A stretch of DNA of 64,000 nucleotides from Ramazzottius varieornatus (taxonomy: Eukaryota > Animalia > Tardigrada): NCBI GenBank assembly GCA_001949185.1, contig BDGG01000001.1:6844325-6908324 (forward strand), given 5' to 3'. Position numbers and translations under genes: made by a program. The notes under the pieces are model-generated. The model worked only from the letters and a program-made list of their open reading frames with translations, was not told the origin of the DNA and ran no database searches. This document shows, piece by piece, positions 3,830 through 28,296 of this stretch. Position 1 is the stretch's first letter. Each line of letters starts with the position of its first letter.

Positions 3830-6396
3830 TCAACCATGAAAAACATGAGAAGAATGATCTGCTCGCCAAAAAGAAAGGCAGGGTACAAAAAGGAGGAAGA
3901 CGAGAAGCAGAGTGTTGACAGTTATTTGGGAACCGGACGTAGTAGCATCCAGATCATGGTCGTGCATGGTGACATTGTAGTCGTTAGCCGTGTACCTCAC
4001 ATTCGGATCATATTTGGGTACTGTGGTGTCCATCAGCCAGCCGTCTCTGTTGTCGTCATAGACGACCTGCACGATGAAAGGCATGGCTCTCCGCACGTTG
4101 GCGTACACTCCCGGGAACCCTGACGCGCACCCGCTAAAACGTTCGAAAGTTGTTACGACCGAACTGATGCTCAAAGGACGTCTAGAAGCCAGGGTACGTC
4201 TCTAGAGTCTTCAGGCCGTTCTTACATGCCAAAGGACGTCAGAGCAGTCAGCTGCCACTGCACTGGCAATAAGGCTGGTGTCCGACACATGAAAGGTCCG
4301 CCACTGTCTCCTTTGCACCTGCAAGAAACAGATGGCTTACATGTAAGAATTGAAGTGCAGAAGATATCCCGTCAAAATTACGGGTTAGTGTCACTTGGCT
4401 ATGTCTCTGTCTATGGGTTTTACAATCGAGAGCTGGGCAAACAGGCTGTACAAGATCGCAGTCATAAGTGGCGCACGCTGTCGAAGTTATATGCTGGAGG
4501 CGTACGCCACTTGAGATAGCAATCTTGTACTGTAGCTTACGTGTCTTTCTCATCGCCACCAGATGCGCAAAGCATCTCCGGTGTCAGCCATCCATATCTT
4601 TTCGGGCATTTGTTCATGGGACAAGCACATTCGTTGGTGTCCATTACCGCCAGGTCGACCTGTTGTAAGACGCCGGAGGAAGCTTGTATCACCGAGCTCT
4701 GCGTCGTGAGGTCTTTGACACCGGAGTCTTTGCTGCTACCACCCCATCCTGTGGCGTAACACACGGTTCCCGCCGGTATCCGGGGCAGTCGCGGTAGGCA
4801 GATGGGGCTGATGGTATCGCCGAACCTGATCGGTTCGGTCAGTTTAAGGAGACAGTAGTCGTAGTTGACGAAGCGGAAGTCGGCGCTGAATGGGTTGGCG
4901 TAGTTGGGGTGGGGGATAACCTTGACAACTTTCTTGACCTGGCTTGGATCGGCTTGCTTGAAGCGATCGTGGATGCCGACCACAATGTCGTAGCTACCGG
5001 CTGGTACTGTCCTGAAAGGATCCATGAACAACGCTGGAGTGCACTAGTCATGCTACAGTGTCATCTCATGAAAGGTACGTGTACGTTAGAACACTTGAAG
5101 TTCAGCCTTTGAACGGCCAACTTACACTCCATTATCCACACAGCAGTGTCCGGCTGTCATAACCCACTGTGGTGCAATCTGCGAACAATCAATTTCCTGG
5201 GTTTTTTTTCCGGAAGAGTACAAGAATCAGCTGTCTTACAATGCTTCCGCCGCACATGGAAAAAATATTGGAGTCTCGGTTGGACCACATGCGAATCAGG
5301 ACTTGCCAGGGCCAACTGTTGGCTACAGCCTGAGACAAGCAAGACAGTCAACACAGTTCGATGACAGCCGAATTCCATCAGCAAAAGGGATTTACTGTAC
5401 CTCTACTCCTCCATAGATTCTGGTTCCGACCGCGCTGGCAGCCCGCACCTTCGGTACTCCACAGACGGTTGAACAGATTTCGTCCTCGCCCTGGGGGCAA
5501 TCATTGTTACCTGAAACATCGAAAACGCTTTCGACACGTGCATCTACATCGTTAATTTTGATTCTTGAAGGAGACGTTCTTTATTTGACCTCCTCCCAAA
5601 CTAGCTGAACTGCCTAGCGAACTCACCGTCACATATCTTATCGCCCGAAATGCACGATTTGGGCGAGTCGGTGGAAGACGCACATCTGTAATCAGCTGCC
5701 CCGCAGTCAGTCAGCGTGGCCGTCAGCTGAAATCCCTTCCGGGTCTCCGTGGCATCCGTCGAGAATAGGACAATCTAAACGTCAGCAAAGCATCGGCAGA
5801 CCCCAAAAATCGAGCACCAAAACGGACGTTTCCCAAGCCATCGACCATACCAGTGTGTCCGTGTAAGAAGTCAAGTTGATGAGTGCATTGCCGCAAAACT
5901 TGCCCATGACATACTCGGGATCTGTCTGCAAGCACAACGGTCATCTTGCGTTTCTCATACCATCTACACCTGCAACAAATTTCTCCTATGGTTGATTGAC
6001 TTGCAAAGAAACGAAATTACACTTGAGATCCCAGACGGCGACAGAGTCCCATTTGCAGCGCCCTTCCGAGTCGGAGGACTGCAGTTGAAAGTCCACTGAC
6101 TGCAGCGTGATGAAGGTATCTTTCAGGCCCATGATAATGTAGGCTATCTTGTAGTTATTTGGATAGTCCGTGCCGTAGTTAATTGATTTCAATGTTTGGA
6201 CATCAGTGGGGTTCCGAAAGCAGATGACTTCCGCTTCGGTGTTGTTGCCGATGGATGAGATGGACGTCAGATTGGCGGAACCTCGACAACCGGGACTGGA
6301 TGGCGCATAGGCCGAATGAAAAGTTATAATCGCACAAATTAGATTCACAAGTTGGAATGCAGATGAACATTTCGAACAGCCAAGGGCGTTCTTCAT
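3830..6396 (-). CDS. Secreted or membrane-tethered S1 serine protease: signal peptide, CUB, LDLa, trypsin domain, hydrophobic C-tail
   Basis: Signal MKNALG..FHSAYA; CUB (KSINYGTDYPNN, CKWDSVAVWD, GKFCG, RKGFQL); LDLa (KICDGNNDCPQGEDE); activation site R/IYGG; SWPWQV, TAGHC, YDYCLLKL, DTCKGDSGGP, PGVYANV; tail LLLVFLLFVPCLSF. Confidence 0.9.
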
Positions 6397-6982
6397 TTCC
6401 TCCTGACAACAGTCCACTCTAATTCGAAATCAGCAGTCCTCAGCGGAATTAACTTCAATACGGATGCATTTGCCTATCAAGACGGACAAACTTCAGTCCA
6501 GGGATCGGAAAAGGGAAGGCGGACAATGAATACGCTGGATATTTCAGTGCGATGCGTGAAAGCCAAATCCACTTGAATGATCGAGCTCGCGTATTCCACC
6601 GGACCATGTCAATCCAGCTTCAAGTTACAGACACTCGAAATGCGTAATGTCGCCGAGCAACGTTATAGTCCTATGCTCCAGAAATTTGCCCATAGTTCTT
6701 CTGGCATAGCGCAAAAACGATGTACTTATATGAGGACAGACCACATGGTGTAGTGAGAACATTAATTTTGGCAGTATGAAACAGCACCGCAGAGCCAGAG
6801 AGATTACTTAGTTAGATAAGAAAAGAAAATACCGTGTGCTGACAAAGGATGGCATACCAGGACGTTGAGGATAGAGTTGGTTGTACCGGTGATAAAATGA
6901 CATACTTAATCCATGAACCAAACCAAAGCAGCTATACTGTGCTCAATCAGATTTATGCGCCGCATCGTACTTTCGCAGTTCC

Positions 6983-8964
6983 TCATGGCATCCACAGAGG
7001 GCAAGTAGCATATTGCGGTAATGTCCGGAGGTGTGGGTCTGTAAGGTACTCACGATATTTGCATGGTTCAGAAGAAGCTAGTGAATATAGACTGTATCGA
7101 TAGTTCGTACCTCAATATGGGACGCCAGTGTTTTGGTGTACATGACGTCAAACTGCTTCTTGATGTGGCCCATGTCCTGCTCGCATCTCTCGATAACGGT
7201 CCGAACTAGGACTTTGTGATAAACCGTGACTCCCTTAAATGCATTATGAAGTCGCTCGGCGAAATACTTGTTCTTATTCTTGACAAACTTTACTGCAAAG
7301 CACAAGATGAAAGAATACCATAAGTGGCGCAGCCGTCTTTGGTTACCACAAACTGAATCTGAAATCGCGTCGTACCTATGTGTTCCAGCAAGTGTCCCAC
7401 ATCGCCATGCAGCTCTTTACCCACTACGGTCTCCACTTCAATGTCGGCCAGCTTTTCAAATTCCCGTATAACCAGCCGAAGGTGGGCAAAGCTGCGACCG
7501 GCGAAGATGGCGATAAGGGCGTCGTCTTTGGCCCAGTGTCGAGGGCCTGCATCGTACAAGGCTCGACCCTCCCATTTGGCCTGCATCTCGTTGACGTCCT
7601 TCCCGCTCTCTCTGGCGCCCTAAAGAGCAAAAAAGGCACAATGTATACTACGCTCAAGTACACACTCGCACTGTCTAATTTTAACCGAGGTGTTCAAAAG
7701 GATGCTTGCAAGTTGTAGGGCTTGAATATGGATTCCTAATTTGCTCACCATTAGGACGGCATTCAGCAGTTTCTTGAAATCGCTGGAACTGTGGACGTGA
7801 GAATCGATGTCGGCGCTCAGCTCTTTCTTGTATTCTAGAAGCAAACACCAACCATTATACCATGCCAAACTCCATCGCGACATTTTTCGCTGTGAAATAT
7901 CGTCGGTGAAGGAGACTTCATGAGTATGAGAGCGACAAAGCTTTGTCGAATTTCTCGAAATTATACAACTTCACAACATACGCAGGGCGTATTCGGTTTT
8001 CAGCGAGCGGAGCTCGCGGTTCGTCCGGGTGCATATGATATCTATCACCGCATCCTCATCCGTGGATATCCCCTGGCACAAGCAAAGTTTCAGCATTGCC
8101 GATGGTGCGAAGTAAACATGGTCTTTGCGCCTACCGTGATGGCATGATGTAGGAGTTGTGCTTCGTATTCGGCTGGCGTCTTGAACAGACCCTCCAGTAC
8201 CTCGTCCAAGTGACCGCTGAACAAGATTGTCAGCTCTCCCTTAAATGCTTTGATTATACTCTGCGTACGAGAAGACATCATCGCTTCAGAGAAGGATGCA
8301 CAATTATCGTAATAATATTATTACCACACCTTTCCATATTTGTCCCGGTAAACACTGGCGATTGCTTGCCGCTGTTTGTTGGTTCGTTTCGACAAGAGTT
8401 CGATGATAGCGCTCTCGTGTGTTCCTAAAACCATATGCACACACTCAAGCCAGTGTTTCTCAGTCCGGCAAACCCAAAGGCGCATTACTCACCGAGACCT
8501 CGCATGGCATCGTACAATACTTTGGCGTCGACCGCAGGATCAAATGGTTGATGCTCAAAGACCGTAGGTCCGACAATGGGTCCATCAGTTCCACCAGTGA
8601 CATTCATTTCCTTAAGGTAGGCCATCCTGTTCATAATGCGGACTTTTCGGTAGGCGTCGCGGCCTGCACGCTCACCAATGCTGGACGACCTGGAGCGGGA
8701 CAATGACTGGTCGGCCGAGAGCGTAGGTAAGGATGAGGCTATTCCCCCGCTACCACTGTCGCTGTCGGATGACGTATTGGCAGTAGAGAAACGTCTGTCG
8801 ATGCTGAACAAGGGAGGAACCTGGTCAAAATCAGAGCGAGGAATGGAAATGGCTGTTGCGGAGTTTAGCGTTGATTGATCAGCAGTAATGTGGATTTGTG
8901 GGATATCGGTGGAAGGGGTCCGTGACTCAGCCTGTGAATTCCGCAGGGCCGAAGCGGAAGCCAT
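6983..8964 (-). CDS. Annexin with long Ser-rich N-terminus (multi-exon, divergent)
   Basis: FDPAVDAKVLYDAMRGLG/TRESAIIELLSKRTNKQRQAI; PAEYEAQLLHHAI; YFAERLHNAFKG..LVRTVIERCEQDMGHIKKQF; ends HTSGHYRNMLLAPLWMP*. Confidence 0.9.
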
Positions 8965-9744
8965 TTAACGCTTCATTGATCTTGCTGAGTAGCGAGGCAT
9001 GTAACGCCGAAGTAATCGGCGAACCTGTCAAGTGAAAACCTGGTAAAGATCGTTTTTTCCACGAGAGGACTTCTTAACGAGAGGACTTCTCGAGCCTGGA
9101 TAAGAATGAGAGGTAATCGACGAACTGAAGTAGACGTGCCAAAGGATTTTATTCGTAAACAATTCAAGCACAATTGGCCAAATCAATGGAACAAATGCTA
9201 AAGACCTTCGGGATCGATACATTGTATCCTGATGAAGAGATACGAAAGACGAAGGTGAGAAGGAGCTGTCAACGATCAGCGTATTTCTCCCATGATTTAA
9301 CTGCCTTTTTGGGTGGCGCAAGTTCACACGCGCATACATTCCACGTCAGCACATTGCTAAGTTAGTATTGATTCGCTTAACCTTTACTAGTGGACGCAGT
9401 TTGCATAATTATATACCGGCCTGGACAAAATTACCGGCCACTGGCCAAATGCGATGGCCACCCGCTAAAGCTGAACAATCAACTAGTCAATCGATGCGCT
9501 GCCGCTGAAAATTAGGCAAACTGCGTGTACGTATCAGAATAATTCGGGTTCGATGTGCAACATGGTGATTCTCAACGTACTTATTGTACAAAATGAAATT
9601 TATTTACAGGTACCCATACCGTATTCCGTACTGCTAAAATTCAAGCCAGCCAAGAAAGATACACAAGCCATTCAGGAAAGGGTAATAACAGTGACAATGC
9701 ATGCTGCACGTGGTGACAATTTGGCGCTTCTTTGGCCAGGCCAT

Positions 9745-10017
9745 CTAGCCAACTATGAGGGGTCTAGCCACAACTGGGACTGGGACTGCGACTGGGACAA
9801 CCTCAACAACAGGACCAACTCGGCGGCGTCCTCTGCATTCGGCAAACTGCCCTTCGCAATATCCGCGGTTGAAACCCACATTTCGGCAGCATAGGTCAAT
9901 ATCTATTCGCCTGTCGAAAGCACCACATTCACGGTCGCAGCCTGGAACCCGCCTTGCATCAGCCCAAATCAGGAAAAGTCCGACGAAAATAAGAAGGGTA
10001 AGCTTCAGAGCCGCCAT
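9745..10017 (-). CDS. Diapausin-like secreted six-cysteine peptide 1 (single exon)
   Basis: Signal peptide then RRVPGCDRECGAFDRRIDIDLCCRNVGFNRGYCEGQFAECRGRRR; C-x3-C-x11-CC-x9-C-x6-C; TATAAA on the minus strand at 10098-10103. Confidence 0.85.
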   Translation of the reverse strand: MAALKLTLLIFVGLFLIWADARRVPGCDRECGAFDRRIDIDLCCRNVGFNRGYCEGQFAECRGRRRVGPVVEVVPVAVPVPVVARPLIVG

Positions 10018-10547
10018 TGACGCTATGCAGGAATAGCACTAGGCCGAACGAAACAGTGGGAAGCACGAGCAACGATTGAGGGACAAAAATATCCGTCTTT
10101 ATAACGCCTTTCGAGGAGCCTTCAAACCTGCCGAACTTGAGCAACCCTGTGGTGTCTGGAAAGACCATAGACACTGCGGAACTTGCCGAGACCTTCGGCG
10201 AGCTTGTCGGTGTTGTTTACCTACAACCGACAACCCCTCGCACAGTACAACAGATAAACAGCCACAGGCCAAGTGACAATTTGTTATTGAATCTAGCAGA
10301 CTATAGGTATAGGCATCTAGCCAACTATGTTGGCCAGTTTTGCTGTGGACGGTCCAAGAACAGTTAATTTTGCGCTATCTGGACATCAGGACTATTGCTG
10401 CACTGGATGCAAAATCACGGAATTGTACAAGAACTTATTACCAGCTGGCATAAGGCAGAAGGAGGGAATACGGAGTCGAATCAGATTATTCAAACCGAAC
10501 AAGCGCTCAAGTAAGCAGGCCAACAGCCGAGTTCCATAACGACACCT

Positions 10548-11058
10548 TACTAGTGATGGCGTATCATACAGGATTTTCTGTAATCTGTTCCAGTGGATCG
10601 ACAAACTACGCCTCGCAAAAGCATCACGGTTCGGTTTTGGTAGCTGGTCCATCAGCTCCAGTCGGCATGGCCAACCCTTTGATCTTCAGCTCTCTGCTCA
10701 TAATTCGAGTGTAAGCTTGCCTACCAGGTGACTTGCTCCGAATCTTTTCCGATCGTTTGAGAAGTGCGTCCGAGAAGCTAGGCAGTGGACAGGGGGCGAA
10801 GCTAGCGGTGGGTGGCGGAGAACTCAGCCGTCCAATTGTGCTAGTGTCGACTTCCTGGTCACTGGAAACGCTGGCGGTCGACAGACGACGGTCGAAAATG
10901 AACAAGGGCGGACGGTCAGAACCAGGACCTACTCTCGCCGGAACCACCACGTTGGAAATGACGGCTGGTTCCGTGGTCGTTCGAGCTGCGGAGGATTCTC
11001 TGGAATCTAAGTGCAAGCCTGCTTGGGATGCCGACTTGACAGCCATCAAAAGCATCAC
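10548..11058 (-). pseudogene. Decayed duplicate of the annexin first coding exon
   Basis: PPLFIFDRRLSTAS..GRQAYTRIM..PTGADGP matches annexin PPLFSIDRRFSTAN..GRDAYRKVRIM..GGTDGP; then a stop and frameshift, with KILYD (cf. KVLYD) before a GTAAGG donor-like site. Confidence 0.7.
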
Positions 11059-11865
11059 CGATCTTAGGGGAAAAGCAACAGAAAATTGTCTGGTAAATGA
11101 CTATGTTACACGGGGGAGAATTCGTGCAGTTTTCGTACCCTGCATTCTGCTGCGAGATGAATAGAAAGGGACTCTACCTTTGATCAACTCGCAGGACGAC
11201 TGGGAAATGCTTTCCATCCGTAAACTTCTGGACACAATTGCCGCAATCGATGGGTCGGATGATAGCTAAGGACTTTTGGGATCGATCTGCCTATTTGCAT
11301 CCCGTTCTTTTGTTACATACCTACGAGAAAGAACGCTTGGCCATAAGAGAACAAAGGCGGTCTCCTGCTGCATCTTTTATCGATCTTCCCCGCTTCAGCC
11401 AAAATTAACGCGGGAGTGTGATATTGATAGCTGGACCGCATCACTGCGGGAAATCTTCTACTATCGATATATGTTCACATCGTGTCGTGGGGGATCTATG
11501 TAGTCACCTGACATTTGAGCCATCAGAAACTTGCGATGTCCTAAGCGCATCACGAAATTCCGTTGGTAGTACTAAGCTCGCTTCGCGCACATTTGATGCA
11601 TTATTCTGTGCTCAACAGGAGATTGAACTATTATATGTGCGGAAAATATTGGGCCAGCTTTTGTAGGTCACTGGTCGGCAGTACGAAAAGCTTATGGTCC
11701 GATGTGGTATAGTGATCCCTATTTTCAAAACTGGTTTTTCATAACTGTTTTCTCTGTAACGAACGTCACGGTGTTAATCGACATGACCCTCAATAAGTGA
11801 CGGCACAATAAATAGCGCAAGTCGGTGTGCGCCGACTGCAACCCCACCGCTGAGATAGTCTTTTC

Positions 11866-12417
11866 TATGGTGAGCCGGTGAGTCGCGCGAGTCAAAGTCC
11901 ACAGTACTTCCACTGCGGTACGTGGGCCGAGAACCTCCATGCGCTGTGAGATACTTTTTCCGCGCATCCACCCGCGGGTTTTTGCCAGAGTTTCACCGCG
12001 GGCGTACGCCCCGATAAAATTCATTTCCCGCAAGTAGATGCGCGGTACAACTCTTTCTCCTCACTTCCACGCACGGTTCAACTGACCAATCGGCGGGTGC
12101 GCGCGAGGACAAACTAACACTAACCCGATGTGACGGGCGGTTAATAAATATGTTGGTTGGCGGGTGCATGCGCGAATCAAAATTCCTTGTGCCAATTTTC
12201 AGTGTATGGAAGTGCGGATGAAGTCTCCGCGCGTCCATCCGCGTACAAATTCTGTTAGGCCACGCTTCCATGCGCGGAAAAAGAAATTTTACCCGCCCGT
12301 ACACTCGCGGTGAAGCTCTTGCAGTAATCCGCCGGTAGATGCTCGGAAAATGTATTTCACCGGGCATGGACCCGCGGTCAAAATACTGTGGACTTTTGAG
12401 TCGCGCGGCTCACCATG
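11866..12417. mobile_element. Foldback-type MITE with long (>150 bp) imperfect inverted arms
   Basis: atggtgagccggtgagtcgcgcgagtcaaagtccacagta mirrors tactgtggacttttgagtcgcgcggctcaccatg; 11935-12030 mirrors 12272-12370. Confidence 0.8.
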
Positions 12418-12788
12418 CTTTCTCTAATTGGAGACAAGCAGAATACTGTATTACCCTGAACCGCAGTACAACTCTTACGTAATACATGTGACGTCTGAGG
12501 TTCTTTCGGGATAATTGTACATTAACTTTTTGCACATACAGAGTAGAAGATAACGTTAATTTACGGTACTGTAAATATTCGATGCTATCACGCAGTACGC
12601 ACACGTACGTGACGATGTACTCCCGTAGGGCGTTGCGCAGGCAGTAAAACCGGATCAGCGAATATTTACAGCATATGCTACAAACAGAAAAATGGAAAAA
12701 TCACCCGAAAAATATAAACGGCAGTGCTAGAATGAACCAGACCGATACACAGTGCAGCGGTGCCGCGCAACAACGGGGCACAAGGGAA

Positions 12789-13046
12789 CTACTTTCCAGG
12801 ACCGAAGCGGTCGCGGCGGCCATCGAACCGTCCGCGACATTGAGCGCCCCCTCTTCGTCCTTCGCACAATCCATTCTGGAATCCGTTACGACGGCAGCAA
12901 ACCGTGATATCAATCCGTCGGTCATCGCGTCCACATTCCCTATCACAGCGGCGAACTCGCTCCGCGTCGACGCATCCAGGAGCCGTCATTGCCAGCAGCA
13001 AGAACAGCGCAACTAACGCACAAAAAGAAAGCTTTAAACCTGCCAT
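12789..13046 (-). CDS. Diapausin-like secreted six-cysteine peptide 2 (single exon)
   Basis: MAGLKLSFCALVALFLLLAM.. signal; ERVRRCDRECGRDDRRIDITVCCRRNGFQNGLCEGRRGGAQCRGRFDGRRDRFGPGK. Confidence 0.85.
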   Translation of the reverse strand: MAGLKLSFCALVALFLLLAMTAPGCVDAERVRRCDRECGRDDRRIDITVCCRRNGFQNGLCEGRRGGAQCRGRFDGRRDRFGPGK

Positions 13047-13851
13047 TGCAGTGAAAGAGGATGATGCCGAGGACAGCGGCGGAAGTTGGTACAAAGATCT
13101 AACCAAATGGATACTTGAGGTCGAATTGTGCTGAAAATAGAATATAGCTAATACTCAGACGGCGGGTAAACAGACAGTGTTTTTATGTCTGAAGAACTTC
13201 GATACAGGTATGCGGTACATGGCAAAGCAAACAACACGGCAGTTCCTGATAGGCCATCCGTAGCCCCGAGATGTTCTTCGAATTCAGTGTTGCTTTGATC
13301 GAGCAGGTGGGTTCCTACTAGTGTGCGATGCATACACTACGGACAGGTTCCAAGATTCAGTCAACTCAGATACCGCTTGTTCGAACCAATTCATCATAAA
13401 CAACATTAGTCATGTGACCGACGCAGATCCGGCATTTGTGTCACATCGATTTAGTCTGTCTTAAGCGCGGAAGATGCCTTGGTGGGATGAACTGTATATA
13501 CAGTACTTTTTGTACAGTACAACTGTTTCCTCTGTATTTTGCGTAGCAGCAGACATAACGCATGTTGGCCAGCGCTGTGTAGCTTAAAAGCCTTAAATCT
13601 CGTACGAGACTTTACAAACAGCAGTCTTTCCGGAAACGGGCCAGAAAACTCACTCCCGAACACCCACCATTCGCACTAAAACCCCATTAGATGACATTGA
13701 GAATAAAAGTGTGATGAGAGGAAGCGGTCCTAATGTTGGTGAACAGCATGAAATGACCGAAGAAGAGTTTTCATCCAGTTTATACATTAATTTCAAAACC
13801 AAGTTGTGCACGTTTTTCGTGAGAGGCTGAGCCGTCTTGTGAAATTGAAGA

Positions 13852-14124
13852 TTAGAATATATCTGGAACGTTATCATATATCCAGAAGGGGGGACGGCGT
13901 GATCGACGACGTCCACGGCATTGCGCACGTCTCCCTCTTTGACAGAATCCCCGGTCAAAACCTTGCTGACGACAGCAGATCCTAATATCGACTCGCCGAT
14001 CGTCCAGTCCGCATTGTCGGTCACAACGACGAACTCGTCTGGTGACAGTTCCGGGATACTCAGCAGTGACAGTCAGCAGCAGGAAGAGCCCAATGAACAG
14101 GAGGGCGGACAACTTTACAAGCAT
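13852..14124 (-). CDS. Diapausin-like secreted six-cysteine peptide 3 (single exon)
   Basis: MLVKLSALLFIGLFLLLTVTA signal; RRVRRCDRQCGLDDRRVDIRICCRQQGFDRGFCQRGRRAQCRGRRR; TATAAA on the minus strand at 14289-14294. Confidence 0.85.
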   Translation of the reverse strand: MLVKLSALLFIGLFLLLTVTAEYPGTVTRRVRRCDRQCGLDDRRVDIRICCRQQGFDRGFCQRGRRAQCRGRRRSRRPPFWIYDNVPDIF

Positions 14125-14342
14125 TTTTGACAACAGAAAGCGACACAACAGAAGCTCTGGAATAACTTCGACCAGTTTGGAAAAATCAGTAATAGAGCAC
14201 GAAGTGAAGACTTTGATCAGACTGAAAGCAAGTACAGTACAAGTTGACTAGTGAGTGTAACCCTGGGAAATCAAGAAGCAAGGTGGTATTTATACCAGAT
14301 ACATATGTTAACAGTGCGGTTTGAAATGACTTGGATGAATAG

Positions 14343-14507
14343 AGTATTCCGGTATTCGACAGACAAAATTAACGGACTTAACCGCCTAAATGTTAATTCT
14401 ATTGATCCCGGATGTTTTTCAGAATGTATAGCGTATTCCGGTGTTTGACAGACGAAAGCAACGGAACCAACCGCCTAAATGTTCTATTGATCCCGGATAT
14501 CTTTTTA
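14343..14507. repeat. Two imperfect tandem copies of an ~89-bp unit upstream of peptide 3
   Basis: gtattccggt..gacagac..aacgga..aaccgcctaaatgtt..ctattgatcccggat occurs twice. Confidence 0.85.
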
Positions 14508-14780
14508 CTACGTCACGCAAAACAAATGCATAGTTTTGTATTTTTGACAAGATGGAAATTTCTGCATCGTGCACTGTATCGTGCTTCAGTATGGTATCGG
14601 CAGAGCTACACAGGCAGTAAGTAGCGCAGCGGAAGACCTGTTTTCGAAATATCACCTTTAGTTCCGCCTTCGGCAGCATAGGCACTAGGCACAAGTTTTG
14701 CACCGCTGCCGCAGTGATAACAAGAGGATCACAGCAGCGCGCGCAGTGTTCCACACACTTAGTTACTCCGCGAGATATTT

Positions 14781-15006
14781 GGGCTCTGGGCAAAGCTCTT
14801 TAGCCGGATGGGGTCATGGCGTAGAGGCACAGATGATGAAAATTCAGTAAAGACCAGGCCAAAGCGAGGGAAAGGTTTGGGGCCGCAATAATGAAAGCCA
14901 ACGATTTTCAGTTTCGGCCACAAGCCCCAGCAGCCCTTGTTGAATTTCCATTCGCTGTGCCTCTACGCCATGACCCCATCCGGTTGAGGAGCTTTGCCCA
15001 GAACCC
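14781..15006. mobile_element. Hairpin MITE with GGG..CCC termini and ATTT duplication (Sola-like)
   Basis: ~65-bp arms including the perfect 29-bp ccggatggggtcatggcgtagaggcacag and its reverse complement; attt on both flanks. Confidence 0.8.
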
Positions 15007-15616
15007 ATTTTTGAGTTCGTCCAAACCTGCACATATAATCCAAAAAAGGTGGGCTTCGGATGCGCATAGGCCCATCAAACCACTGCATGTCAGCTTGGAA
15101 GCTGACAGACGAGCTAGGTGATCGATGCTACTGGCTGCACTCGTATATTCTTTCTTGTCTGCTTCATCCGGGTGCTGGCCACTGCCCGCAAAATCTTCTC
15201 TAGGTGCGGCTTCATCCGACCGACAGCTGCAAAGCTCCATCCTGAGCCCCATATCTTTTACCATGCCAACCAGTGGCAGTTCGTCTACTACCGAGTTACC
15301 ACTATTGCATATGCTCAGACAACAAAAAATATCCAGTTCAAAAATCGTCCAGTCCATGTTGCGATCTTTAAGTTTTAAAGTCCATCTCCTAAAGATTCTC
15401 ACGCATACGTAACGTACCGCTACCTAGTTCGACTACTGGTCGTTCACCACCGACACTTGCAGCGGTGCATTGACTCTTTCAGATCCTAATGATGCGCATT
15501 GACCAGTTTTCAATCTAATAGAGAGCAACGCCCAAATCATTCGGCCTGGGTATCGTAACACTGTCGCTGACTAACCAGTGAAGGTTGCAAACTTGCGGTA
15601 CGGTAGTAACGGTACC

Positions 15617-17905: not shown

Positions 17906-20900
17906 TATTAACCAGAAGCTTTCTGGAATAGTAAATTTTTCTTCACTGTGCCGGCAGATCCTCTTCGGTTCTTTTGATTTCAACGTATGTACCATCCATC
18001 CTTCGTAAACCATCTAATATCAGTTCAAGGCACTATCTAGCTACAGGGTACAGAGTACTGTGGAGTCGGACTGAGATGGGAGGCTATGCGTACAATGCAG
18101 TTGCTTGTATGGACTCTTCCAGCGTAACTTTCTTCGAAGACCATGCTGGAACACAGATAGGTCCAACGTAAAAACTTAAACGTTAGAACTGAAGGAATTT
18201 CTTCTGTTAGCCTGCTTACCTGGTGACAGAAGTTTTTCGTTGATAATGTTGGCCGTCACACGAGCCGTATCGCCCAGGACGATTTCCGAATGGTTGCCGG
18301 TTACGAAAGTGTAAACGTCCGGCTTTACAGTACAGACCTGCAAAGATTTCCGATACGTTCTTGATTCTTTGGAATACAGCAATCATAAGTATCAAACTAG
18401 CGCAAACATGCTCTTCATCTGATATCACACGACAATATCCGGGTTGGAATCGAATAATTCGGGTCACGCGATGAATGGTTTTGACTATCCTACCTTTGCG
18501 AGTTCGAAGTCATCGCCAACTGTTCACACCATCTTCTCGGAGCACTTGATCAGCGTAACTGGTCCGGTATATTTTCTTGATGGTTTGTAAGAATCCGCTG
18601 CCATCATCCTTAGGGTAAAGAGTCTTGCAGCTTCCGCAAGGTCGCTCTCTGGCGTGTAGCGAAAGTCCACGCAGCACTTCAGTTCTAGAGCGGCAATCTG
18701 CACCTTCTTCTCAAATGTTTTGGCCCGTTCGAGCTTGCTTGTCAGCTAAAACAAGAGGTTGGGGTACACTCAATGCATGAGTGTATCCCTCTAGCGTTGT
18801 CACTATATCGCTTGCGCGCGTACCTGTTTGCGCTGAGTCACTCATAAGCTCACTCATAAGCGCAGCAGCTGATCAGAACTTTGAATAGTTGGGCAGCCAC
18901 CATGCTTCCCAATGCCAGCCAACCGTAACTCCGAGTACGCTAGTTTTCGAAAATAACGGGAGCTCCGGAAAGCAAAATGTAGTTACACGTCACGAAAGGG
19001 GCGGAGCAAGGCCGTAGCTACAGTTGCAAAGTGAACGGGAGTGGCAACTTAATCTCTATAATGTCGGGACAGCAGCTCCAAAGAGTCAACGTTGGTATCG
19101 GATGTACAGTTGAACCCGTATGTGGTGACGCGTAGGTGTTTGCCAACAATTGCAGAGAAGGTAAGACCGAGCCTTCCGTTGGATGGACAAAGAACAATAT
19201 CTGCTTGGATTTTGGAACTTGGCACAGCTGAACAATCGACTGTTTCGGAACGATACAGTTTAAATCGTAGTGCTTGTATGCCGTATCGACGATGAGGGAC
19301 ATACCGTCGGCAATCTTCGAGTATACCTTGGAGGCGCTCAATGCATTTGAGGTGTTGGACAATAAATACATGTCTTTGACGAATAGTGATCCGAGTTCCT
19401 GAAGCGTCAAGGACAGACCGAAGTCGCGCTCCAGAACTAACCCGAGCTCCATCGCCATCAGCGAATCGATACCGCCAAAGACAAATCTTGATCCAACTTC
19501 CTGAAATCTTTGATACCTGATAAACGAAACAGCTTTAGTACTTTCAATGACTGACGCAGCTGTTTGGTACGGAAGAAAATCTGCATACCCATGATTTTGC
19601 CCACGGTCAGCGGGAAGTGTTGGAAACGTACTGTAGGTTGCTGTTTTTCTTTTGCTCAGCGTTCTCCTCCATGGCTAGCTTAGCCGTCCTTGGTGACGCC
19701 GTGTTCATAGCTGTGTGTTCGGAAATTGTCCACTTCAAGCCAATTACCCTCCAGACCTGGTCCGGAGACCCGGCCGTCCTGCTGGACCGTGATGGGGAGC
19801 CCGGAAGCACTCGCTACCGCAGCGTCAATGCGGAAACAGTCCAGCTTCAAAGTCCCAATGGAGTGAATGGACTGGACCCGTTCAACTGTAGGCTGATGTT
19901 GACTCAAAGATGGCACGGGAAGACACCATCGACAAGTGCCTCGCGATTACCTTTCAGCGTACCAGATACGCGGTTCTTTCCTGCATGAACCAAACCAAAC
20001 GGTTAAGCCCTATACTTCGTACGTGCGCCAAAAACAAGCGGAAAAGTGGTTGATAAATCTACGGTGACGCATGCTGGACTACTGGACGGATGGCGCTGAG
20101 TCTGACTGCTTTACCCACGATACCTTGGTCAACTGCAACCGCATGGAGTACATGGTAGTATCGGCCGTAATCATGGCCGCGATGAGAAAGTTCCTCGTAC
20201 ACGTTGTCCACTTTTTTCCACAGCACATCGTTTTCCAATGTACGATCCTCAGTGGGAGCAGACGGGACCAACGCAGCATAACTGGTACAAACGACATCAT
20301 TGCCACGGACCACATCACAGTAACCGTTTGACTTGGCAAAGTGGACGATCAGCTCAACTGTAGAGATCTTCAGGCTGATGCCCATGGGTTCGCATAGGAA
20401 ATGCACATCACTGAATGCACATCACTGCAATGCTCGGTCTTTCGTTTCGTGCAGCCACTTTGCTTGTAGAACTCATTGGCCAGCAGGTTTATTAACCCTC
20501 CCAAGGGAAAGACAGTCTGACCAGCAAATTTGTATTGGGAGTAATGGTGATTCAATGGATCCAGTAGATCAACTTTGATGGTGTTCTGTGCACTAGAACA
20601 CCGTTTGTGGATAAAGTCCGAAAAGTGTGGTGTTCGCCAGTCTGCCGAATGATCCCACTGGACGGCAGGACCGAGGAAGGGCGTATCACGAGGAGCGGGC
20701 AGACTAGGTATGGGGTAGAGTTGCTTCACGTCCGGATGCAGACCTCTGACGTACAGCTGGCCAAGGACCTCGTAGAGATGTGTTAAGGCGCTGGCCGAGT
20801 TGTGGTCCATAAGGGAAACCGAACAAGCCTGTGCACTGGCGCCGCTGATGGTTTGCTGCATGAACTGTTGTAAAACACCGTGCGGCGAAACTTCTATCGT

Positions 20901-22329
20901 GACCGCCTTGTCTGGTATGTTCCCTGCTACATGTCTAAATTGAACTGGGGAACGAAGATTATGAGAAAAGTAATCGGCAGACGCCAGTCGCGCTTCAGTC
21001 GTTGACCAGTCGGCTTCGGGAAAGGCTGAACTCAGCCATCGACTAGTTCTTGCTTTCGGCTCTAATATTACCTACAATAACAAAGAATAGCGTGGCCAAG
21101 CCTCAGTCAACAAGAAGTGTGCGATAATCACCTTCTGTAGAGAAGTGTGACATTTTACTGGGGCTTTTTCCATGTATGGTGAATGGTATATCCGTCGCAA
21201 AGGGGTCAATCGTGCCAATACGCATCTTTTCGGTTTCAGTTTCTCCACCAACTGTCCGATACTGTCAGCAGGTCCGGACGAAGTCACACTTTCCACAGAG
21301 TTGCCATCGACAATCCCTATGTCGGGATATTGTCCGATCAATCATTCCGCCTTTCTCAGACTTAATCCAACTTCCACCGTGCTATCGAGTGGCAGCTCCG
21401 ATTCCCTGATTGACAGACCAATATGGTAAACAATGAGCATTGCCTGTTCCAGCGTGATACAGCCGTCGGCGTAAGCACACCCGATCTCCCCAGTGCCGTA
21501 ACCGATGATACCATCCACAGGTACCTTTAGAGTCCGAAGAAAATCCACCAACGCCACCTGGATCGCTGTTATGCTCGTCATCGACACCGTCGGGTCGTGG
21601 AACGGTTCCGCGCTTTTGTGGCTCAGGATGGACAAAAGATCGAGGCCAAGTGGCTTCAGGACCGTTGCGCAGCGTTCGATTGTGGTCCGGAAGGACAGTA
21701 GCTGTAGGAGCTCAGCACCCATAGTCGGCCATTGACTTCCTTGTCCGCTGTACGCAAAAAGTATAGAATCAGAACCACAATGAACGATAGTTCAGCAAGA
21801 ATACAGACTGTGAAAACTCAGCTCGAAAAAATCTCACCCGAATATCCACCACACAGGTTTTCTACCCAAAGTGACTCGATCAACGACGATTGGTGGATTT
21901 TCCGCGTTGAGGATTGTGTATCCTCTTTAAGGCATGGAGGCCGGCTTGACGAAAGTGCTTTGCATCAGAAGATAGGGGACATAGGGATTCTTTGGAAATT
22001 TCTTGATGAAGTCCATTGCATGGTGCGCGGCTTGTTCGGTTCTTCCCATGCAGACAATCAATAGCGATTCCGCTACCTCAATCCCTTTTTCCATCACACG
22101 TGGGTTCCCCATTAAGACGTGATGAGCATTCTGTCCGCCAAAACCGAAGCAGTTTTGTCCTGCCAAAGTGGCGGTCCATCTTGTCGGCTCGGTGACGACC
22201 TGTAGGCGACCATCAATCAAGGCGGGGATGCGCGGGTTGGGGTTGTTGTAGTGCAGGTTGGGCGGAATGATGCCGGTTTGCATGGCTATGAGAATCTTGC
22301 ATAGCCCAACCGCACCTGAAGCATGCTCA

Positions 22330-24608
22330 CGAGGGGATTTTTCCAATCCGCCGCCTCTGATCCTCAAACCGACATCACAGGTGGATAGAGAAGAGTTTTC
22401 TCTATAGTCTGAACCGGAAACCTGGTCATCTTTCCGTTCCTGGAATAAACTGCAGGAACCGGAAGTTACGTCAAAATTAGGGCGGTACTGTACATTGACC
22501 GAGGCACAATCAATAAGTTTGATTTACTCATAGTTGATTGGCCAAAATTGATTGTTCCTTCCATCATATGAGCTTGTCGCTGTAGCATGACGCATCTTTT
22601 GTTGATTCTCTCCTCCATAATCTTCCCACAACACTGCGATGTACTCCATCAATCCCTTGAACGTGCTAAAGCTCCTGGAAGAGGAACACAAACTCCGGTA
22701 TCAACCGGACGATGCGCCAAGTGAAGCGGACAAGCAGCTGAAAGACATTATCAAAGGTAGGTATTTTTCCGAAGGTTCAGTGCAGAAGTAAGAGGTTTTG
22801 TTTCACCGGATTGTTGGAAGATTCTAGATCTTATTGACATCAAAATTGCTCGAAGCGACAGTCCTGTGCTGGAGGTTGAAGAGGACTTGCAGGGGGACTT
22901 ACAGCTCGACGGGCTAACGTTCGACGACTTTGAAAAGACGGCGGGTGATGCTAACCTGTTGAACGGTAGCGCTGAACGTTATTTCTTCGAAGATGATCGC
23001 TTGAACGAGCCCGTTACAAGTGACACTGAACCTTCGTCCCACGAAATATTTGTTCCGCGACTCCCAGATCCGAGAGTTCCGTCAAGCCAAGCTGTCGATC
23101 TCGACTACAAGAAACGTGCTGTTGATTACTGGTGTAACGCTACAGCAAAGAAACGGCGGAGCTTGTCTTCAGTCCGAAACCATTTCACAAAAGTTCGGGA
23201 CGAACGACAGCTAAGAGACTGGAAGAAACAGCTAGCTGAAGGCGGATCCCGATTCGACAAATTGAAAGTCATTCGCTTGGAGACAGCAAAGCAGTACTTC
23301 ATGGCCAAGCAGAAGACACAAGTAGTCAAGGATATGGATCTTCAACGATGGGCGATAGCCGCGAATAATGATGTGGATCTGCCTGGTTTCACCGCTTCGC
23401 CGTACTGGGTGTCAAAATTCAAACGGTAATTGATATCGTGCAAGAATTTACTTATCGATTTAACGAAGGCAGATCTTCTGTATTTGAACGTCGGCAAACG
23501 ATTTCACCTGAATCGTCAGTTCAAGTAGCGCACGTTACCGTACTCAATAAGTGACAGCGGCGCCGCTTGAAAAAAAACGACCTTTTCCAATTTGCTGGCA
23601 GTGTTCCGATGACATAAGGCGTGAAACACGTCGAGGCTATAACCCAGTCCGACAATTCCATGACTCATTCCTATACTGTCATGATAACAATCTCTCCCGG
23701 CATACGAAAGGTTTATCCTATTTTGTTCATCACCCTGAAAGAAGAAAAAGGAGTCTCTGGCCCAATCGTGTCTAAAACAATGTTCAAAGCTGATGTACAT
23801 CACTGTGTCGACATCGGGAAAAATGACGAAGAAGCTCTACCTGGAATGGTCCGAAAAAGTGTTGTTTCCGCATATGGAAGACCGCTGTATCCTTCTGGCT
23901 GACTCCTGGAAGACGTTCACCGATCAGGACGCTGTTATCGAACTCAAGCCCGAAGAGCTGCAGTACGAGATGATCACCATACCTCCCAAAGTGACTGGTA
24001 GTATCCACCCGTTGGATGTTCTTTGCTTCCGGATGTACAAGGGATGTTTCAAAAAGATCTCAAATTTCGTGTTTGTTAATGATATTCCTGTACATGTCCA
24101 TCATAGGGACGTAATCCTAAAACTTCATTCCTTACTGTATCAGCAGTTTCAGTCACCCAGATTCGAGAACCTAATTGTAAGTGCCTGGTTCAAGTTGGGA
24201 TATACGGATGAACGGGTACAGTATGTGAACCCCGCAAGCTTCATGTTCAAGAAGCTGAATGGCCGCTGCATTCATAATAACTGTAAGAATGCTGTCCTTC
24301 TGGTCTGTGGGTGGTGCAAAGGTCGCCTCTGTTTTCACCATTTCTATGATGTTCATCATTTCTGTACCATCTACCTGCCTTAATGTTTTTTTGAATTTTC
24401 CACTAGATATCTTTACGAGGACGGAAGTAACAGGTTAACTTGTAGCGCCACCTGTGTTGGAATTTTGACGTAACTTCCGGTTCCTGCAGTTTATTCCAGG
24501 AACGGAAAGATGACCAGGTTTCCGGTTCAGACCATAGAGAAAACTCTTCTCTATCCACCTGTGATGTCGGTTTGAGGATCAGAGGCGGCGGATTGGAAAA
24601 ACCCCTCG
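22330..24608 (+). mobile_element. Tc4/Tc5-type DNA transposon, 2279 bp, ~149-bp TIRs, TCA duplication in a CTCAG site
   Basis: TIRs 22330-22478 and 24461-24608 differ by about 2 nt; tca at 22327-22329 and 24609-24611; removing the element plus one TCA restores KS codons H-T-E-H-A. Confidence 0.92.
22639..24383 (+). pseudogene. Tc5-like DDE transposase (intron-containing, frameshifted or garbled around 23480-23790)
   Basis: HTH-like DMDLQRWA..FTASPYWVSKFKR; THSYT; ILLADSW; IPPKVTGSIHPLDV; C-terminal CGWCKGRLCFHHFYDVHHFC. Confidence 0.85.
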
Positions 24609-25971
24609 TCAGTATGGCCCATGTTGGACTTGACCGCTCCGCTGAGCAACGGTTTCGTACGACTGTTGGCGAAAGCCAAGGCAATCCCATTGGACTCTTG
24701 TGGGTCTCCGATTCGTGTTCCTGTTCCGTGTGCTTCGACATATTCCACCTCCTCTGGATCGATAACAGCTTCCGCGTAAACCTCGCGGATCAGCTGACCC
24801 TGGCTCTCCGATTACGGATACGTCACACCTAGAAAATACGGCGGTCGGCAGTTGACTGGACAAGATTAATTTCCCAAGTGGCGTACGTTTTCAGTGTAAT
24901 TGGCTAAGAGCGTGCGCCACTCGAAGAATCGATCTCGACGAAGTTGTTTATTTGCTTATCTCCCGTATTAAATTTGACTGATTAGAAAAGTTGCACTTTG
25001 CACAGATGGTTTAAACAAACGACAGTTTGGACAAAACGACTGCATTTAGAGAAGTTTAAACATTCAAGATTTGTAATTCGCCTCGCGATTCACGAAACGA
25101 AGGGGAGCTTCGTTCGTGAATCACAAAGAAAATCACCCGTAGGTTTCAAACATGAACGAATTGCCGTCAGTAATGCCCTGGCTGGCCGGAAGCACTGGGA
25201 AGCGTAATCGGTGCCCGGGCAACACAGGGCCTCCACTCCAGACAATGCATCAATCAGATCTGCATTTGAGCCGGCTCTTTTCTAACTTGGTGGGCTAATT
25301 ACTGCCGAACAAACCACCATGACCAGCAGCGGTCGTTTGTCCCATCGTTTTTCCCAAACTCGCCCGCGTTGTGCAACTTCTCAAAGCTTCTAGCGAATGC
25401 TTTTATAAACTTCGATTTTCAAAATTAATTAGTTCTCGTTTGTTCAAACCATCTGCGCAAAGTGCAACTTCTCTGTTGTTGGTAATAGCGCCCGAAGGTG
25501 AATATGCAGCTCTTACCTTGCTCCTTGTAGCCATCGTTGTTGGTCTTACTGTGGACCAATGTGGCGCAGATTCGTCTGGCATCTTTGCGTTTCTGTAGCA
25601 AGAAACACATGATGGCTTCGAACCGTACGTATCCATCTGCCGCTTCGTCGAAGACCTTGCACTTGGAGTCTTTGCAAAGTAGACCGAGCTTGGATATTTG
25701 GTAAGCAATCTTCGGCCGGTACACGAGGCTGACACCTCTCACCAAGGCAGCCGTACACTGTCCGTTCTTGATGTGGTTGTAGCCCTGGTAAACAGCCATG
25801 CCACTGGTGCAACATGCGGCGTCGATCCCGAAGGTGGGTCCTCGTAGATCAAAGGTGAAGGACAGACGATTAGCGAGAAAGGCTCGATGAGTGCCAATGA
25901 GGGAGTATCCGTCCACCTCTACGAATATTCGAATATCTTAAGACCACTCGCCATTTATGGTCCGACCGGTA

Positions 25972-26891
25972 CACGTACGATGGGAAATCACTGGACAGTA
26001 AAAATTATGGGACAGGCGGCAAGGACGGCAAAATGGATATTAGACCGTAAAAAAGTGTCGAAAAGTGTTTCACTATGAATCGGTCGCGTACGTAAACCCC
26101 GTTCACGCCACATCGCTACCTATAGAACTGCTGCGTTCGGGACTGGATCATCACTGAACTTCGGAACTAATTTTCCTTGGTTTAGTATCCTGGATATCTT
26201 CTAAATATTATCGGGCAGATATCTGTTTACGAAGAAGTCAGGATCGACATCAAACAAGGGGAGGTGCAAAGCGAAATTTGCACCAACTTTTGCTGTTTTC
26301 AGGTCCGTTGTCAAAAATTGTTTTCTCAGTAACGAACTGTGTTCATGCGATTTTCTTCATGAAAATAATTAGAACACGGCCCGGGCCGCATGAAAACTGG
26401 TTTGAAACAAGAATCTGCCACTCGGAGCCAGAGCTAGGATTTTCGCCACAAAACGGTTTTCCCGGCAAAATGAGCAACTTCGACCGTTTTAATTCATTTG
26501 CCGAGCTAGTTTGGTATTTCTGTGGTTTTTTGTGACTTTTTCAGACAACCCAGATAGTTTCAGGCCTACCCACGTCACATCAGGGATCGTATCTCAAAGG
26601 GGGATTTCTATAGTCCGCATTTCACCCCTGAACGACACGTCTTCCCACCGGAGGTCACACCAGTCGAATATCTGGAGCCGCTTTCCATCGTAACAAAACA
26701 ACTTATGGCTCAGTCGAAAGGCCTTGAAAAGTTGTATGAGCAGTGCGAAGCAGCAAACGAAACGGAGCAATCTGAATTTTTTCACGTCGAAATGCTAGGT
26801 GGAAGCGATGTGGCGTGAACGGGGTTGGGGTGTACGTGCTTCTTTACCGCCGTATCGAAAAGGCCTGTCCCATAATTACCCATCGTGCGTG
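25972..26891. mobile_element. Family A MITE copy 3, interrupted by a family B element
   Basis: Family A left half 25972-26094 and right half about 26831-26891 bracket the insert. Confidence 0.75.
26095..26826. mobile_element. Family B element copy 2
   Basis: TIRs aaccccgttcacgccacatcgct / agcgatgtggcgtgaacggggtt; colinear with 833-1568. Confidence 0.8.
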
Positions 26892-28296
26892 TACCGTAAG
26901 ACCGTTAACGTGAGACGGTGTAATAGCAGTATCAAAAGATATGGATAAAGAAGATATACCGTCAATGTCGAGAGAGGTCCAGGCTTCTCGCGCGTCGGAG
27001 TTCATCGTTCCCATAGATACTCCAGTGTTGGTATTTTTTATTTCCGCCGGGTTCATTCCCGCATCGATGAGTGACTCGTATGCAACTTCGTGAAGGATGC
27101 GGAGATGGGGATCCATCCCTTCAGCTTGCTTGGGGTGTACTCCGAAGAATGTTGCGTCGAATTTCTTGATGTTCTTTATAAAGCCGTGGGCTTTCGGTAC
27201 TCCAAAATAATCTACCACAAGACAAAAACTTGGACACTGATGTATCGATCGACCGTGCAGTCGATGTGTCGATCGAGTTCTGACCTTCATCACATCTCTC
27301 GGGGTTCTCGTGGACCATGTTGATTCCGTCCATCAGATTGTTCTTGAATTCTTCGACGTTCTCCGACATGGCACACCTAATGAATATCCCTGTGATGACG
27401 ACGTCGTCAGGATTCTCCATCGTTGTGAAACCAAGCGAAAGTGCAACCGGCGTCCGATCAACTTGGACGTGGACTCGAGTATTGGCAGGAAAAGCTAACA
27501 AGAGAGGGAGAGGAGAAAACAACGTGGTACACTCGAATAAGAACGACTAATAGTAATGCCGGTGTCGGGCCCGAATTTAAGAAATGAGGTGCCCAAGTAC
27601 ACTTCGCTGTTTGGTAAACAGACCGAAGGCTATTGCGACCTGCCAAATATCAATATCTTGCTACGAAAGAATGTATCAGTTTTCAGGAAACGATACTTGA
27701 TAAATGGTACTTTGAGCAATGGCGTGACTTTCTGATGTGCCAGCGTCAGGCATCCAGACATGGCTGCCGGCGGACTTTTCAAAAAAATGCGCCCCAGACT
27801 TGGCAGAGCGTGCTGGAAGCCTGAAAGTCAGCTGACAACTTGTTCGAGGGTGTCGGGAATGTTACCCCTCGTCTGAAACCGCGTGATTGAAGGATCTAGA
27901 AAAAGGCAGGTCTTCCACGCGGTAACACAAACCGGCGTCAATGTGGCACGCCAATTTCATTCACCTTAATCGAGGGAACGCTCCTTTGCCACCACAGTTC
28001 GCACGATGGCGGGCCAGCAGGAAGACAACGGATATGCAGGGTTGGTCAACGTACACGCATTTAGGAACGAATCTTTCATTATACTACATAGATAATATCA
28101 TGCAGCGTAGGGTATCACATTCATTTGTGAAGGTGTGCAGAAGTAAAATCTAAAGGAATACTGATTCGGCAAACAACTAATAATTCGACTAGACCTCGTG
28201 TCTCCAAGTTGAAGCAACAAAACGTGTCAATAAGGTTTCTAGGGTAAACAAGAGCCGTAAAAGTGCAAGGACGGTTAGTGTTTATAGTGAGAGACT

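Follow-up and report, generated by a model that had tools for sequence, protein, structure and literature searches.

An overlooked cluster of probable diapausin-family peptide genes in the tardigrade Ramazzottius varieornatus

Introduction

The diapausin family (PF08036, Antimicrobial_6) groups six-cysteine peptides such as the diapause-specific peptide (DSP) of the beetle Gastrophysa, blapstin and Manduca diapausin-1, and its characterised members are reported to be antifungal (PMC10051947, PMC10269622). Blapstin is described as antifungal at 5-7 µM and as deforming fungal membranes with no inhibition of ion channels, unlike DSP (PMC10269622). For springtails, the published motif is C,X3,C,X9-14,CC,X9-11,C,X6-9,C, and the disulfides of diapausin are given as C1-C3, C2-C5 and C4-C6 (PMC10051947). 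In nematodes, a second loop of 13-14 residues is reported for Mesorhabditis, and double-domain forms exist (PMC10506718); in the available text of the springtail and nematode reports, which gives no activity data for them, these diapausins are predicted genes (PMC10051947, PMC10506718). Here, we compare with these families three genes in a 64,000-nucleotide stretch of the genome of the tardigrade Ramazzottius varieornatus (GenBank assembly GCA_001949185.1, contig BDGG01000001.1, positions 6,844,325 to 6,908,324 of the forward strand), referred to below as the window, to which all coordinates apply. They probably represent an overlooked three-gene cluster of diapausins in a phylum without reported members in the literature searched.

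The nematode diapausins have been proposed to derive from beetles by animal-to-animal transfer, possibly via an iridovirus (PMC3175473, PMC3337135, PMC10506718), and a homolog of beetle DSP has been reported from an iridovirus (PMC10506718, PMC9963324). Broader sampling of taxa has been called for in a recent survey in order to put the beetle-to-nematode transfer to the test (PMC10506718). A tardigrade family is relevant both to this question and to tardigrade immunity. No tardigrade diapausin was found in the literature searched, outside of which subscription papers or supplements could hold a prior mention. The accessible part of a tardigrade immunity paper (PMC7056985) mentions neither diapausin nor defensin and names antimicrobial peptides as yet to be found, and that of a 2026 review (PMC13389832) has no mention of diapausin. 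Peptides with the cysteine-stabilized alpha-beta (CSab) fold have already been reported from this phylum (PMC5116183), so that the peptides described here have predecessors as candidates for tardigrade defence.

Results and discussion

Three six-cysteine peptide genes

The cluster is flanked by an annexin gene on one side and a scramblase gene on the other, and comprises three intronless open reading frames (ORFs) on the reverse strand, viz., gene 1 (9745..10017; peptide P0001, 90 residues, six-cysteine core at residues 27-61), gene 2 (12789..13046; P0002, 85 residues, core at residues 34-70) and gene 3 (13852..14124; P0003, 90 residues, core at residues 34-69). Both the positions of these same-strand ORFs and the shared landmarks quoted in the original prediction, which was made from the DNA letters of the window alone, are borne out, the landmarks corresponding to invariant columns of the paralog alignment. 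In this alignment P0002 and P0003 are 54-59% identical to P0001, with 31 invariant columns. The measured cysteine spacing is C-x3-C-x11-CC-x9-C-x6/8/7-C for P0001/P0002/P0003, in agreement with the second loop of 11 residues and fourth loops of 6, 8 and 7 given at first. A six-frame scan of the window finds this six-cysteine motif three times, always in the cluster genes, as against no match in 40 windows simulated with a third-order Markov model.

All three precursors begin with a hydrophobic stretch (best 12-residue Kyte-Doolittle mean of 3.0-3.06), and the signal peptides proposed earlier are supported to the extent that hydropathy can support them. With their length of 85-90 residues and this hydrophobic N-terminus, judged by hydropathy only, they conform to the short precursor with a putative signal peptide that is a diapausin trait. 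In P0001 the leader is followed by the six-cysteine core, a Gly-Arg-Arg-Arg site and a Val/Pro-rich C-terminal tail (a predicted propeptide), whereas P0002 has a leader with two additional cysteines and, behind the core, a short basic tail with a Gly-Lys end, and P0003 has a short acidic/dibasic pro-piece between leader and core and a poly-Arg site followed by a short tail. The peptides had been called very arginine-rich, which holds for genes 2 and 3, where Arg makes up 28% of the post-signal part, but the charge is offset by Asp/Glu; the net charge between Cys1 and Cys6 is -2, +2 and +4 for genes 1, 2 and 3, respectively, and that of the whole post-signal part is +4, +8 and +11.

Sequence relationship to diapausins

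A profile of the mature domain, searched against 1.84 billion representative proteins, in which P0001-P0003 themselves are absent, gave two matches at E<=0.001, viz., P0005 (E 1.5e-8) and P0004. The latter, an oyster protein of 4054 residues (E 1.6e-32), was rejected as its score adds up 20 weak matches to repeats, which extend over no more than positions 10-31 of the profile. When P0005 was added to the profile, two of 592 candidates were accepted, P0005 itself and P0007, which carried a precomputed PF08036 match. P0005 and P0007 are Logan proteins of 124 residues, 79% identical to each other, each with two tandem C-x3-C-x10-CC-x9-C-x6-C domains. They are the closest database relatives of the tardigrade peptides, with 35-43% identity and 15 invariant core columns, and differ from them in having two domains per precursor and in containing His and Lys; in their two domains they resemble the double-motif diapausins described from nematodes. 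A profile built from P0005 and P0007 only scores P0001, P0002 and P0003 at 34, 27 and 28 bits, respectively, whereas shuffles with fixed cysteines score at most 13-16 bits, and none of the 1000 shuffles made per peptide reached the real score. On this sequence comparison, we regard the homology of P0001-P0003 to P0005/P0007 as firm.

The tardigrade peptides share with the diapausin family the short leader-bearing precursor and the C-x3-C...CC...C...C array. Their spacing of x3/x11/CC/x9/x6-8 falls, in all three peptides, within the springtail diapausin motif, and since this motif spans X9-14 at the second loop, a loop of 11 residues is ordinary for diapausins. The longer second and variable fourth loops had been taken as the mark of a distinct lineage-specific family, a distinction that is lost as the springtail motif contains all three peptides. 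Compared with blapstin, for which loops of 9/10/6 are reported (PMC10269622), P0001-P0003 have loops of 11/9/6-8. Their cores are free of Lys and rich in Arg and Asp, and they carry C-terminal extensions behind a Gly and a basic site. By eye, and without a score, springtail HduoDiapausin9 and Mesorhabditis g1242, as given in the family reports, share non-cysteine landmarks with P0001-P0003; gene 3 and HduoDiapausin9 are alike at 15 of 36 core positions outside the second loop (six of them cysteines), among which is an unbroken stretch of six residues that closes with Cys6. Multi-gene families are common to the springtail, nematode and tardigrade sets, while the host phylum differs. Separately, scans of metagenome and viral contigs gave 431 and 55 pattern matches, respectively, none of which was confirmed.

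Predicted structure

AlphaFold2 models of the gene 1 and gene 3 cores, built on alignments of three and five sequences, have mean pLDDT (predicted local distance difference test) values of 85.5 and 81.0, respectively. In these models a short N-terminal helix and a main helix carrying the CC pair are predicted along with a hairpin and an N-terminal bridge, an arrangement compatible with the two helices and three-stranded sheet of diapausin. In VIA searches, DSP (PDB identifier 2E2F) superimposes on the gene 1 model with a Z of 4.3 and a root-mean-square deviation (RMSD) of 2.0 over 39 of 41 residues (rank 5), and on the gene 3 model with a Z of 4.0 and an RMSD of 2.2 over 40 of 41 residues (rank 10). 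The best viral fold match of both models in BFVD is protein 308L of invertebrate iridescent virus 6 (IIV-6; Q91FL6), an uncharacterised protein that aligns over 40-42 columns with probabilities of 0.91 and 0.99, 35-36% identity and a template modelling (TM) score of 0.69-0.70. We infer that 308L may be the iridovirus diapausin-like peptide of the literature.

Strength of the family assignment

A number of results weigh against placing these peptides among the diapausins. The Pfam scan of P0001-P0003, as full and as mature sequences, returned no family, PF08036 (Diapausin) included. The link through their relatives is itself faint, as the PF08036 matches of P0005 (E 0.02, 15.4 bits) and P0007 (E 0.007, 16.8 bits) lie under the curated cut-off of 25 bits, and for P0005 Penaeidin scores slightly above Diapausin. 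The His that follows CC in most of the listed springtail diapausins is replaced in P0001-P0003. PDB sequence searches did not return 2E2F, the hits being weak ones to 8gxt (E 1.4), 6u8y (E 0.71) and 6aty (E 0.25), with none for one query. Among the structural comparisons, drosomycin tops both VIA searches (Z of 4.7 for gene 1 and 5.3 for gene 3; RMSD of 2.1-2.3 over 41-43 residues), 2E2F is level with drosomycin and plant defensins for the gene 1 model and trails them by more than one Z unit for gene 3, and all VIA Z values are below 6. Foldseek on the PDB did not list 2E2F, and its leading rows are CSab peptides at E>=0.8. The 308L fold matches have weak E-values (0.38 and 0.09), and one literature search gave no confirmation that 308L is the published peptide.

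Family papers assign diapausins by cysteine motif together with homology (PMC10506718, PMC10051947), and the missing Pfam match therefore lowers the case for membership without excluding it. The likeness to diapausin seen originally thus stands in the spacing and in the weak profile link through P0005/P0007 and fails at a direct PF08036 match; in structure, 2E2F aligns end to end with the models, but the scores of CSab peptides are as good or better. The predicted fold fits diapausin without telling it apart from CSab defensins, whereas the cysteine array does set P0001-P0003 apart from the latter. Taken together, diapausin is the best family assignment for P0001-P0003, and on this indirect evidence we consider it very probable that they belong to the family.

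Transcription and annotation status

Sequencing runs X4, X8 and X17, from three studies, were treated as RNA because their contigs skip the introns of neighbouring genes, which those of the DNA run X1 do not; this status is taken from the spliced joints and not from the run records. The contigs span each of the three ORFs, as had been anticipated for transcribed genes. Gene 1 is spanned in two of the three RNA runs (9366-10020 in X4 and 9370-10035 in X17), its cover in X8 being faint. Genes 2 and 3 are spanned in all three (gene 2 by 12370-13156 in X8, 12461-13425 in X17 and 11178-13156 in X4; gene 3 by 13484-14294 in X4, 13667-14200 in X8 and 13548-14247 in X17), and none of the contigs of these runs has a splice joint within any peptide ORF. 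Runs X10 and X13 also cover the three genes, with identical sequence, no joints and other organism labels, and were therefore counted neither as orthologs nor as proven RNA. At 80% likeness, X22 and X24 leave the genes uncovered, which is uninformative either way, and neither run yielded divergent alleles.

A TATA-like box with a putative promoter role lies on the reverse strand upstream of each ATG, viz., TATAAA at 10098..10103 (86 nt upstream of gene 1), CATAAAA at 13181..13187 (141 nt upstream of gene 2) and TATAAAT at 14288..14294 (170 nt upstream of gene 3). Contigs end at 10070 (two runs), 10020 and 10035 near the start of gene 1, at 13156 (X4 and X8), 13140, 13250 and 13425 near that of gene 2, and within 14200-14294 near that of gene 3. 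Some of these ends, in some contigs only, fall 31-36 nt below the boxes, a weak hint at promoters. Just upstream of the gene 3 box, a tandem duplication of ~85-89 nt is present at 14335-14504.

The exact sequences of P0001-P0003 are absent from a collection of 15 billion proteins, and near copies of 46-158 residues were likewise not found there, none of 132 word-search candidates qualifying at E<=1. In contrast, the collection does include the annotated 143-residue protein P0006, encoded within the cluster, and HDAC3, encoded on this scaffold as well; an exon of HDAC3 that lies in the window shares 99% identity with RvY_02480 of R. varieornatus, followed by Hypsibius exemplaris at 81%. The three peptide genes are thus unannotated in the collection searched, in line with the original remark that genes so short and with a single exon easily escape annotation. 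That they are missing while scaffold neighbours are present shows that absence judged from proteomes is unreliable for diapausins.

Selection and duplication history

Among the paralog cores, the proportion of synonymous differences (pS) is 0.80-0.87, i.e. saturated, and that of nonsynonymous differences (pN) is 0.18-0.29. The resulting pN/pS of 0.21-0.36 has bootstrap upper bounds of 0.36-0.57, all intervals lying below 0.6. The codon alignment was built on the protein alignment and is biased to low pN, but the contrast is nonetheless large. The peptide cores are under purifying selection, which agrees with the constraint foreseen for the paralogs.

P0006 (10624..11055, reverse strand; annotated in NCBI), with a spliced upstream intron at 11063-11177, lies between peptide genes 1 and 2. 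It is a partial paralog of the neighbouring annexin gene, with 37% identity over 91 residues (E 3e-7) to the first coding exon, which is rich in Ser (8485-8964); the likeness is confined to this exon, and P0006 has no annexin repeat. A 22-nt upstream repeat is common to P0006 and the annexin gene, at a distance of 2068 nt. P0006 is probably what is left of a tandem duplication of DNA in the cluster, and this relic and the shared repeat lead us to propose that the duplication is old and took part of the annexin gene along.

Proposed function and alternative explanations

Based on analogy with characterised relatives, we propose that P0001-P0003 are diapausin-family peptides with an antimicrobial, and by prediction antifungal, function, a reading to which we assign a probability of about two in three. 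The leader would direct the precursor to the secretory pathway and would then be removed. A Gly followed by a basic site allows cleavage by convertases and C-terminal amidation, and the conserved site of this type after Cys6 could accordingly release a mature peptide of ~41-43 residues, possibly amidated. Three disulfides, C1-C3, C2-C5 and C4-C6 as in diapausin, would lock the two helical segments onto the beta-sheet. With its Arg residues and partly hydrophobic character, the surface might attach to the cell envelope of fungi and damage it, an action reported for the beetle peptide blapstin. The slightly acidic core of gene 1 counts against this reading. The differing core charges of the paralogs (-2, +2 and +4) suggest different targets or compartments.

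Within the same family, the peptides could instead serve a non-immune role, for example as ion-channel modulators in gland secretions or as protective peptides of the cuticle, egg or tun. A block of Ca2+ channels is reported for beetle DSP (PMC3175473, PMC9963324), the fold is common to scorpion channel toxins, transcripts occur in runs of several studies without known infection, and the cores are under purifying and not diversifying selection. On the other hand, constitutive expression also fits a standing defence, blapstin is described as antifungal with no ion-channel inhibition (PMC10269622), and the characterised members are antimicrobial in the reports available (PMC10051947, PMC10269622, PMC11011964). 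We consider such a role unlikely. A departure from the family itself, in the form of an independent CSab defensin or drosomycin offshoot that acquired a diapausin-like cysteine array by convergence, could draw on the fold rankings given above, on Atlas neighbours that are all CSab-type clusters (at 0.76-0.81, below 0.9 and hence leads only) and on the CSab peptides reported from tardigrades (PMC5116183). The models do share with drosomycin (PDB identifier 1MYN), plant defensins and scorpion short toxins a predicted disulfide-packed helix on a beta-hairpin. CSab defensins, however, have a C-x3-C in the main helix that is paired with a C-x-C in the last strand (the C-x-C is visible in the 6ATY sequence alignment), whereas P0001-P0003 have adjacent cysteines on the helix, a single cysteine in the last strand followed by Arg-Gly, and no C-x-C. 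In addition, the relatives P0005/P0007 match PF08036 and no defensin family, and a comparison by eye shows agreement with springtail and nematode diapausins at non-cysteine residues. We find convergence quite improbable.

That the ORFs are chance readings, pseudogenes or contamination could be suspected from the lack of any exact or near match in the protein collection, but the idea is refuted, with next to no probability left to it, by the simulated windows, the RNA cover and a pN/pS well below 1; contamination is further countered by a DNA contig of X1 (7000-12413) on which gene 1 and the spliced annexin gene lie together. A separate matter, concerning origin only, is whether the founder gene was a retrocopy or was acquired horizontally, with soil arthropods, nematodes or an iridovirus as the source; the genes would be intronless in either case. 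The family is described as patchy in hexapods and nematodes, with transfer proposed for Pristionchus (PMC10506718, PMC3175473, PMC3337135), the search of the 1.84 billion representatives yielded no ortholog from a tardigrade at E<=0.001, the best viral fold match is an iridovirus protein, and the intronless coding regions lie beside intron-rich genes. Against this, the saturated synonymous sites mean a long residence, the annexin-exon relic points to tandem duplication at the DNA level, and absence from other tardigrades may be under-annotation, because the peptide genes are missing from the collection while their neighbours are present. The GC content at third codon positions of the peptide genes (0.46-0.51) is close to the overall GC of the window (0.46-0.51) and is uninformative on origin. 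A horizontal or retroposed founder is accordingly doubtful; recent transfer or retroposition of the peptide genes is not supported, and old tandem DNA duplication fits. The original prediction had called their lack of introns compatible with a horizontal or retro origin without taking it as proof.

Returning to diapausin-family peptides with an antimicrobial function, a more far-reaching and tentative extension, which we put forward with less than even expectation, is that diapausins form a family of ancient standing in the Ecdysozoa that under-annotation has kept out of sight, and that the tardigrade set is old, constitutive, amidated and antifungal, arming the animal ahead of its drying into a tun. 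If so, the patchiness of the family would reflect loss and missed genes and not beetle-to-nematode transfer, and the cluster would supply concrete effector genes with which to study how tardigrades defend themselves while lacking a canonical Toll pathway. For the test of transfer, old paralogs in a third ecdysozoan phylum are relevant without being decisive. Three transcribed and constrained candidates in a model species are direct targets for assay and knock-out.

Other features of the window

An inverted-repeat element resembling a miniature inverted-repeat transposable element (MITE) occupies 11877..12414, between gene 2 and P0006, with raised DNA depth and loose ends in X1. A second MITE-like element is found at 14780-15007; the two flank parts of the cluster, and both give multi-copy signals in this DNA run. 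An RNA contig of X4 (10270-13156) bridges P0006 and peptide gene 2, where read-through is possible, and one run has a GT..AG joint at 10510-10594 on the strand opposite to P0006. A gene for a CUB-domain trypsin-like serine protease (4537-6429, reverse strand) adjoins the annexin gene. At 19018-27546, exons resembling fatty-acid synthase/polyketide synthase, with an acyltransferase domain, are split by a Tc5/DDE transposase (22761-24383), and a ketosynthase-like stretch lies on either side of it (21927-22523 and 24403-24832).

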